Shown here one piece after another: positions 46,198-48,019 of a stretch of DNA of 64,000 nucleotides. Origin of the DNA: Escherichia coli (lineage in GTDB: Bacteria; Pseudomonadota; Gammaproteobacteria; Enterobacterales; Enterobacteriaceae); assembly GCF_050920415.1 (NCBI RefSeq), contig NZ_CP169309.1. One strand, 5' to 3'. The notes under the pieces were generated by a model. The model was given only the letters and a program-made list of their open reading frames with translations, made no database searches and was not told the DNA's origin. The first letter of the stretch is position 1, and every line of letters begins with the position of its first letter. The position numbers and the translations under genes were made by a program.

Positions 46198-46905
<708 letters not shown>

Positions 46906-46912
46906 TGCTTTC

Positions 46913-46932
46913 AGCCCGCGTTATCGCGGGCT
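46913..46932 (+). terminator. candidate terminator of leuE
   Basis: stem AGCCCGCG / CGCGGGCT, loop TTAT; weak T-tract. Confidence 0.5.
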
Positions 46933-46988
46933 TCCTGCCTGTAATCTTTCCTTATTCATCGCTGATACGGTGCTAAAAAGTAACCAAT

Positions 46989-47011
46989 AAATGGTATTTA
47001 AAATGCAAATT
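46989..47011. promoter_or_regulatory. candidate NsrR operator upstream of yeaR
   Basis: AAATGGTATTT-A-AAATGCAAATT resembles the 11-1-11 NsrR inverted repeat (AAGATGCATTT-N-AAATGCATCTT); ~70 nt upstream of yeaR. Confidence 0.45.
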
Positions 47012-47077
47012 ATCAGGCGTACCCTGAAACGGCTGAAATAAACTGTTTTCAGCACATTCATCGAAGGAGGGAAAAGG

Positions 47078-47437
47078 ATGCTGCAAATCCCACAGAATTA
47101 TATTCATACGCGCTCAACGCCTTTCTGGAATAAACAAACTGCGCCTGCCGGAATATTCGAACGTCATCTTGATAAAGGAACGCGCCCGGGGGTATACCCA
47201 CGCCTTTCCGTTATGCATGGGGCGGTCAAATATCTCGGCTACGCTGATGAACACAGTGCAGAACCTGATCAGGTGATCCTTATCGAAGCGGGGCAGTTTG
47301 CGGTGTTTCCGCCAGAAAAGTGGCACAACATTGAAACCATGACTGACGATACTTATTTCAACATTGACTTCTTCGTTGCTCCTGAAGTCCTGATGGAAGG
47401 CGCGCAACAACGGAAAGTCATTCATAACGGGAAATGA
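47078..47437 (+). CDS. yeaR: DUF1971 protein YeaR
   Basis: ORF 119 aa. Confidence 0.9.
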   Translation: MLQIPQNYIHTRSTPFWNKQTAPAGIFERHLDKGTRPGVYPRLSVMHGAVKYLGYADEHSAEPDQVILIEAGQFAVFPPEKWHNIETMTDDTYFNIDFFVAPEVLMEGAQQRKVIHNGK

Positions 47438-47440
47438 ATC

Positions 47441-47623
47441 ATGGGCAAAGCAACGTATACCGTGACCGTTACCAATAACAGCAATGGTGTTTCTGTCGAT
47501 TATGAAACAGAGACGCCGATGACTTTGCTGGTGCCAGAAGTGGCGGCTGAAGTGATAAAAGATCTGGTGAATACCGTGCGTTCTTATGACACGGAAAACG
47601 AACATGATGTTTGTGGTTGGTAA
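47441..47623 (+). CDS. yoaG: DUF1869 protein YoaG
   Basis: ORF 60 aa, 3 nt downstream of yeaR. Confidence 0.85.
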   Translation: MGKATYTVTVTNNSNGVSVDYETETPMTLLVPEVAAEVIKDLVNTVRSYDTENEHDVCGW

Positions 47624-47770
47624 TTATCACTGATCGTAGATGGCGCAATTTCTGCGCCATCGCAAAAAAATCCTCCGTGATGCTTGTCACAAATCTTGCC
47701 CTCCTGATGTTGTGCTATGCTTTTTATCAGCGACTAACCCGCTAATGCAAAACAGATAAGTGAGGAAACA

Positions 47771-48019
47771 ATGGGCATTCTGTCATGGATTATTTTTGGG
47801 CTTATTGCCGGTATTCTGGCGAAGTGGATCATGCCAGGTAAAGATGGTGGTGGATTCTTTATGACTATCCTGCTGGGAATAGTCGGTGCCGTAGTCGGCG
47901 GATGGATCAGCACGCTGTTTGGCTTTGGTAAAGTCGATGGCTTCAATTTTGGCAGCTTCGTGGTTGCCGTTATTGGTGCGATTGTCGTGCTGTTTATCTA
48001 CAGAAAGATCAAAAGTTAA
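47771..48019 (+). CDS. yeaQ: GlsB/YeaQ/YmgE-family small membrane protein
   Basis: ORF 82 aa, Gly-rich TM helices. Confidence 0.85.
   Translation: MGILSWIIFGLIAGILAKWIMPGKDGGGFFMTILLGIVGAVVGGWISTLFGFGKVDGFNFGSFVVAVIGAIVVLFIYRKIKS

Follow-up and report, generated by a model that had tools for sequence, protein, structure and literature searches.

The NsrR operators of ytfE, hcp, hmp, and ygbA share a 23-bp unit, an inverted repeat of two 11-bp half-sites about one central base (11-1-11), with the half-site consensus AAnnTGCATTT. The putative operator at the yeaR promoter of Escherichia coli is built on the same unit. Unlike the other four, it has 7 bp in common with a half-site for NarL, so that one stretch of DNA would serve two regulators, and it is absent from the sites recovered by ChIP-seq. 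A second close relative is the ogt promoter, which, like that of yeaR, is NarL-dependent and Fnr-independent, has a 7-2-7 NarL site abutting the −35 hexamer, and is antagonised by Fis. However, ogt needs two NarL sites, at −44.5 and −77.5, where yeaR needs one, and the literature examined describes no NsrR operator at ogt, unlike at yeaR.

The yeaR promoter itself has been dissected genetically since 2007 and, under the name PyeaR, is in use as a part for nitrate biosensors. In 2024, cryo-EM on this promoter resolved NarL in its transcription activation complex with RNA polymerase (NarL-TAC; PMC10853779). The same paper reports activation by phospho-NarL both in vitro and in vivo, through the α C-terminal domain and without Fnr, and gives a discriminator at −6 to −1 and a GAA transcript. 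A single 7-2-7 NarL site is reported to suffice, and Fis competes with NarL at the promoter, according to the title of Squire et al. (2009).

Control of yeaR-yoaG by both NarL and NsrR is attributed by several papers to Lin, Bledsoe and Stewart (2007), and Conover et al. (2016) likewise place the locus under both regulators. Derepression in an nsrR mutant or by nitric oxide (NO) is reported by way of citing papers (Filenko 2007; Lin 2007). With reference to the same two studies, Mehta et al. (2015; PMC5320621) call yeaR ‘known to be regulated by NsrR’. In strain CFT073 grown with nitrate, yeaR and yoaG were up 160- and 168-fold, respectively (PMC5320621); these expression data cannot separate the NarL signal from the NO signal, because nitrate alone yields both. 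Increases of yeaR-yoaG of more than 30-fold are reported for intracellular bacterial communities, inside bladder cells. Salmonella studies are reported to use yoaG as an NO reporter for the NsrR regulon, and yoaG is also described as NO-responsive on plants. Thus, the NO responsiveness that an earlier note had predicted from the letters of the present DNA is established by experiment in the literature, as is the response to nitrate. The regulation of yeaR-yoaG is already known and published, and there is nothing new in our reading of the operator.

The yeaR-yoaG locus and its transcript

The DNA analysed here (the window) is a stretch of 64,000 nucleotides from E. coli. Over 801 bp around yeaR-yoaG, the window matches an E. 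coli chromosome with 100% identity. Of 5426 complete E. coli genomes, 5419 contain this region, annotated leuE, yeaR, yoaG; the RefSeq labels on the identical DNA are yeaR and yoaG. The gene order is dmlA, dmlR, leuE, yeaR, yoaG, yeaQ, yoaJ, yoaK, dgcP. This is the same locus as the yeaR-yoaG promoter of E. coli K-12, from which the window differs at the strain level only. From −59 to +1, the window matches K-12 MG1655 base for base, with the NarL string and the NsrR 23-mer identical, and a few substitutions lie upstream of −59. YoaG has the same protein accession as K-12 YoaG. YeaR is identical to the K-12 protein at 118 of 119 residues, and the window strain carries A87T; the residue is Thr-87 in the window and Ala-87 in both K-12 and the protein of PDB entry 3BB6.

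The 66-bp core hardly varies among E. coli strains: 5406 of 5416 genomes are in the 95–99% identity band, and only 4 of the 5416 are identical to the window over 46975..47040. One base separates the window from K-12 and from each of eight other sampled genomes; in K-12 this base is position 47036, outside the operator. The features of the region are collected in Table 1.

Table 1. Features of the yeaR-yoaG region, in positions of the window.
Feature	Positions	Strand	Details
Hairpin past leuE, AGCCCGCG-TTAT-CGCGGGCT	46913..46932	+	perfect 8-bp inverted repeat
NarL 7-2-7 activator site, TAACCAATAAATGGTA	46981..46996	+	centred at −43.5; string and position from PMC10853779
Putative NsrR operator, 11-1-11 inverted repeat, AAATGGTATTT-A-AAATGCAAATT	46989..47011	not applicable	spans −43 to −21, centre −32
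Predicted −35 hexamer, TTTAAA	46997..47002	+	placed from the NarL centre at −43.5; 17-bp spacer to TACCCT
Predicted −10 hexamer, TACCCT	47020..47025	+	−12 to −7; placed from the discriminator at −6 to −1 of PMC10853779
Predicted transcription start (+1), G	47032	+	by arithmetic from the NarL centre at −43.5
5′-terminal mRNA hairpin, GCUGAAA-8 nt-UUUCAGC	47032..47053	+	minimum free energy −9.2 kcal/mol; z = −3.8 for the first 32 nt
Shine-Dalgarno sequence, AAGGAGG	47064..47070	+	read directly; 7 nt 5′ of the yeaR ATG
yeaR	47078..47437	+	119 aa, DUF1971
yoaG	47441..47623	+	60 aa, DUF1869
Hairpin, GAUGGCGCA-AUUUC-UGCGCCAUC	47639..47661	+	9-bp, GC-rich; 16 nt past the yoaG stop

The two genes are as the earlier note had read them, yeaR (DUF1971) and yoaG (DUF1869) separated by 3 nt (47438..47440). 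YeaR matches PF09313 (DUF1971) in Pfam with 80.6 bits, above the gathering threshold of 23.1, over profile positions 1–80 of 80, and YoaG matches PF08956 (DUF1869) with 113.3 bits, above the gathering threshold of 21.3. For comparison, we scanned one genome per species; 26 orthologous loci had flanks that could be used, and these come from Escherichia, Citrobacter, Salmonella enterica subsp. arizonae and diarizonae, and Silvania. In 25 of these 26 loci, yoaG begins 2–5 nt after yeaR, and in Silvania the distance is about 370 nt. The tight spacing fits a functional pair with coupled translation, and the 3-nt gap in the window suggests that yoaG is probably translationally coupled to yeaR. The GAGG/AGGG core of the yeaR Shine-Dalgarno sequence is also conserved in the orthologs.

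Upstream, the hairpin at 46913..46932 is likely the leuE terminator and the boundary of the yeaR control region. A terminator scan called a terminator-like site at 46926..46942, and the hairpin stem is kept in most of the orthologous loci. Downstream of yoaG, RNA folding of 47618..47690 gave −22.2 kcal/mol with z = −3.7, and the hairpin at 47639..47661 is possibly the 3′ end of the operon transcript. Since an A-run and not a T-run comes next, this hairpin does not qualify as a canonical intrinsic terminator, whichever strand is read. The next gene, yeaQ, is not co-induced with yeaR-yoaG, according to Conover et al. (2016). A search of 46850..47800 with Rfam in E-value mode gave zero matches.

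An open reading frame of 163 aa lies on the minus strand at 47114..47605, antisense to yeaR-yoaG; we considered it as a gene and took it as a mechanical ORF, as there is no evidence for a gene. In CFT073, the ‘hypothetical’ genes c2201 and c2203 are numbered around yoaG (c2202) and yeaR (c2204) and were co-induced 142- and 147-fold, according to PMC5320621. They may be spurious overlapping ORFs of this antisense kind, read by unstranded RNA-seq.

The two-gene mRNA probably opens with a stabilising hairpin, to judge from the fold of its first nucleotides. In the leaders of the Escherichia, Citrobacter, and Salmonella orthologs, a hairpin also starts at +1 to +5, with stem sequences that differ. 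RNAalifold gave no consensus structure on a MAFFT alignment of 16 5′-UTRs. The leader hairpins were inspected singly because their registers differ between orthologs. Comparison of these leaders suggests that the hairpin is conserved as a structure and may act as a stabiliser of the 5′ end. The window strain has a rare G-to-A change in the stem at 47036, which turns a G·U pair into an A-U pair; K-12 has G at this position.

The NsrR-like repeat and the NarL site

The 23-mer AAATGGTATTTAAAATGCAAATT sits 67 nt 5′ of the yeaR start and reads directly as AAATGGTATTT at 46989..46999, A at 47000, and AAATGCAAATT at 47001..47011. We scored the window with a symmetrised NsrR weight matrix, trained on the 16 sites that PMC5320621 (Table 4) lists as ChIP-seq-positive, with yeaR left out. 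The 23-mer scores 21.3 bits and ranks first among the 63,978 positions of the 64-kb window, the second best being 10.9 bits, and Markov-1 simulations give about 0.01 expected matches at 21.3 bits per 64 kb. The score is also higher than the median of the training sites of the matrix, 17.7 bits. With a half-site matrix, the left half scores 11.4 bits and the right half 9.7 bits, compared with a median of 9.8 bits for the known half-sites. We rejected the idea that the right half is clearly the better NsrR half, since it agrees with the consensus at 10 of 11 positions and the left half at 8 of 11, yet its score in bits is the lower one. The two arms are complementary at 8 of 11 positions; as there are 115 equally good 11-1-11 repeats in the window, symmetry was dropped as evidence.

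Mehta et al. (2015; PMC5320621, Table 4) list the very same 23 bases as the NsrR site of yeaR, with a PatSer ln(P) of −17.05, beyond the cut-off of −14.28 used there. The NsrR-like 11-1-11 repeat to which the earlier note had drawn attention is therefore this published site, and the matrix scoring that the note had proposed as a check bears it out. Although the note had read the sequence correctly, it had missed both that this is a characterised promoter and that the left half of the repeat is the promoter-proximal NarL heptamer. Scoring of NarL heptamers, which it had also proposed, was less helpful. The string TAACCAA-TA-AATGGTA does match TACYYMT-NN-AKRRGTA at 10 of 14 positions, but the window has 224 sites that agree at 10 or more, so the match does not discriminate and was dropped as evidence. 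The NarL site at yeaR is identified by the experimental literature only, not by its match to the consensus.

The promoter-proximal NarL heptamer and the NsrR 23-mer have seven bases in common (46990..46996). Given the published NarL centre of −43.5, +1 falls at 47032, where the G agrees with the GAA transcript of PMC10853779, and the NsrR-like site therefore falls at −43 to −21, overlapping core promoter elements and covering the −35 hexamer. The −35 hexamer is kept as TTT[A/T]AA in most orthologs, with TTTGAA and TTTAAG in the two Salmonella, and the −10 hexamer is kept as TA[C/A][C/T]CT in Escherichia, Citrobacter, and Salmonella. A scan of 46850..47800 for consensus σ70 promoters called none, which is uninformative because the promoter is activator-dependent and has weak hexamers.

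The best matrix match of each locus is an NsrR-like site in all 26 orthologous loci, scoring 12.3–23.6 bits and located 84–95 nt 5′ of the ATG, and the NarL site is conserved in 22 of the 26. The upstream alignment has a sharp conserved island, from the NarL site to the −10 hexamer, across three genera, and the flanking spacer has diverged. The right half of the repeat, 47001..47011, keeps an AAATGC, AAATGT, or AAATAT core across genera. Three Citrobacter loci (L007, L015, and L024) and Silvania are without the distal NarL heptamer, and their NsrR-like sites still score 20.6–23.5 bits. In Silvania, from which the NarL site is absent, the NsrR site is the most symmetric, with 23.5 bits. Because the loci without the NarL site retain the NsrR-like site, we conclude that this element is conserved independently of the NarL site.

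The three Citrobacter loci belong to the Citrobacter sedlakii group, and in them leuE and yeaR are separated by an inserted gene, which encodes an AT3-SGNH acyltransferase of 658 aa (366..2342 in L007). At the junction of this insertion the distal NarL heptamer is lost, but the NsrR-like site (20.6–21.1 bits), the −35, and the −10 stay. Single-base variation within the repeat was also seen. E. coli strain 112 has a T-to-A change in the right half at the position of window 47004 (AAAAGCAAATT), and it is the only sampled E. coli strain with this change. Citrobacter sp. Awk 4 has the same change in the right half, with which the site score drops to 16.8 bits.

It is very improbable, in our judgement, that the likeness to NsrR operators is coincidental, with NsrR not binding at all and the AT-rich block conserved only for its −35 hexamer and its sites for NarL and Fis. 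The left half does share bases with the NarL heptamer, and the −35 hexamer takes up the centre, but the right half, of which the NarL site takes no base and the −35 only a small part, keeps its core across genera. Furthermore, the four loci without the distal NarL heptamer retain high-scoring sites, and this independence from NarL therefore counts against a block that is conserved only for NarL and the −35. Symmetry of 8 in 11 is common in the window, as the 115 repeats show, whereas the matrix score is 10 bits over that of any other window position. Fis is reported to act at the yeaR promoter, at least in the title of Squire (2009), but the literature treats yeaR as NsrR-regulated. ChIP-seq of NsrR in CFT073 gave no peak at yeaR; the authors deem this a probable false negative and cite operator genetics (PMC5320621). 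The wording of the same paper implies that an earlier ChIP-chip study in K-12 listed ygbA, not yeaR. With ChIP-seq negative and ChIP-chip silent, direct in vivo occupancy of yeaR by NsrR is undocumented in the literature examined.

The negative ChIP-seq result would also fit an indirect response of yeaR-yoaG to NO, in which NsrR would act by way of another regulator or NO would alter NarL or Fis activity, and the 23-mer is not the relevant operator. Nitrate gives the NarL signal together with endogenous NO, which are inseparable in expression data. We nevertheless hold an indirect response to be highly unlikely, as an operator that scores high and is conserved sits right on the −35 and those who did the ChIP study regard yeaR as a false negative. 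It is also conceivable that the repeat is bound not by NsrR but by a different regulator of the Rrf2 family, or another that recognises AT-rich sites, e.g. IscR, since Rrf2 proteins recognise related inverted repeats. However, the matrix was made from NsrR ChIP-seq peaks only and places the yeaR site above the training median (21.3 vs 17.7 bits), and no alternative regulator is suggested in the literature examined, which makes such a replacement extremely unlikely.

The region is very probably the control and coding part of the two-signal yeaR-yoaG operon of E. coli, which NarL activates and which NsrR represses until NO is present. That the 23-mer is the NsrR operator is supported by the motif match, by conservation, and by published genetics as cited by others. 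NarX senses nitrate and gives rise to phospho-NarL, which binds at 46981..46996 (−43.5) and recruits RNA polymerase via the α C-terminal domain to a weak core promoter; published work demonstrates this activation with promoter DNA of the same sequence as in the window. In the mechanism that we propose, NsrR, an iron–sulfur repressor of the Rrf2 family, would bind 46989..47011 (−43 to −21). To judge from the geometry of the overlap, the bound repressor would cover the whole −35 and the promoter-proximal NarL heptamer and, because the overlap covers both, would block both σ region 4 and NarL. NO nitrosylates the iron–sulfur cluster of NsrR, with loss of DNA binding and release of the repressor. 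Full expression would therefore need nitrate and NO together, the one for NarL activation and the other for NsrR release. The two signals would coincide during nitrate/nitrite respiration or in inflamed host tissue.

YeaR and YoaG

What is the function of YeaR and YoaG? The earlier note had called both proteins of unknown biochemical function, and they still are. Papers from 2016 and 2024 describe them so, the titles of their structural-genomics entries in the PDB are ‘Uncharacterized protein yeaR’ for the crystal structure of YeaR (3BB6) and ‘hypothetical protein yoaG’ for the structure of YoaG (1NEI), and NCBIfam (June 2026) has no specific model for YeaR or YoaG.

YeaR has been claimed to resemble the SAM-methyltransferase domain of TehB (Conover et al. 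2016). We rejected this likeness, as the alignments hit the N-terminal ~100 residues of TehB instead. YeaR aligns with the stand-alone ‘TehB’ 3DL3 with E = 1.4e-20 and with residues 8–99 of 286 of 3M70. Against the TehB equivalog NF008992, it reaches 42.2 bits, below the cut-off of 303, and covers profile positions 7–104 of 289 only. The likeness is therefore to the N-terminal domain of TehB and not to the methyltransferase; YeaR is without the methyltransferase part found in long TehB proteins. His-30 and the motif W82-H83-x-x-E86 are invariant in 13 YeaR orthologs and are kept in the TehB-type proteins 3DL3 and 3M70. The match of YeaR to Cupin_2 (PF07883) is sub-threshold, 15 bits with E = 0.021 (cut-off 27.2), and that to DUF1255 (3EO6) is weak, E = 0.44. 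An AlphaFold2 model of YeaR, made from a 13-sequence alignment, had a mean pLDDT of 62 and was discarded; a Foldseek search of the PDB with this model gave only noise and missed its own structure, 3BB6.

These comparisons hint that YeaR might be a small metal-binding, cupin-like protein, which together with YoaG might act in the tolerance or repair of NO damage and not in NO removal. A yeaR-yoaG mutant kept the anaerobic NO-scavenging activity that Mehta et al. sought (PMC5320621), and a direct NO-detoxifying role for YeaR or YoaG is unlikely because of this. Deletion of yeaR is reported to have lowered type 1 piliation in strain UTI89. In Salmonella, STM1808 is reported to be NsrR-regulated and to have a role in virulence. 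Karlinsey et al. (2012) reportedly found this DUF1971 paralogue to be a zinc protein that needs two histidines. If these observations are read jointly, YeaR, with His30 and Trp82-His83-x-x-Glu86, and YoaG would form a metal-dependent unit for an undescribed step in NO-damage tolerance or repair; their mRNA would also be controlled through a 5′ hairpin that covaries with lineage, and the operon of the Citrobacter sedlakii group would be under NsrR alone. We regard this joint reading as speculative and rather unlikely to hold as it stands.

Implications

The insertion upstream of yeaR in the Citrobacter sedlakii group predicts that yeaR-yoaG is under NO-only control there. With the promoter dissected genetically, solved with NarL, and in use as a biosensor part, what is left to ask is the role of YeaR and YoaG, and sequence analysis of the window makes that question no more tractable. 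It is a question about genes that are among the most strongly nitrate- and NO-induced of uropathogenic E. coli (PMC5320621). As for their control, the finding shows that a real operator is recognisable from the sequence alone.
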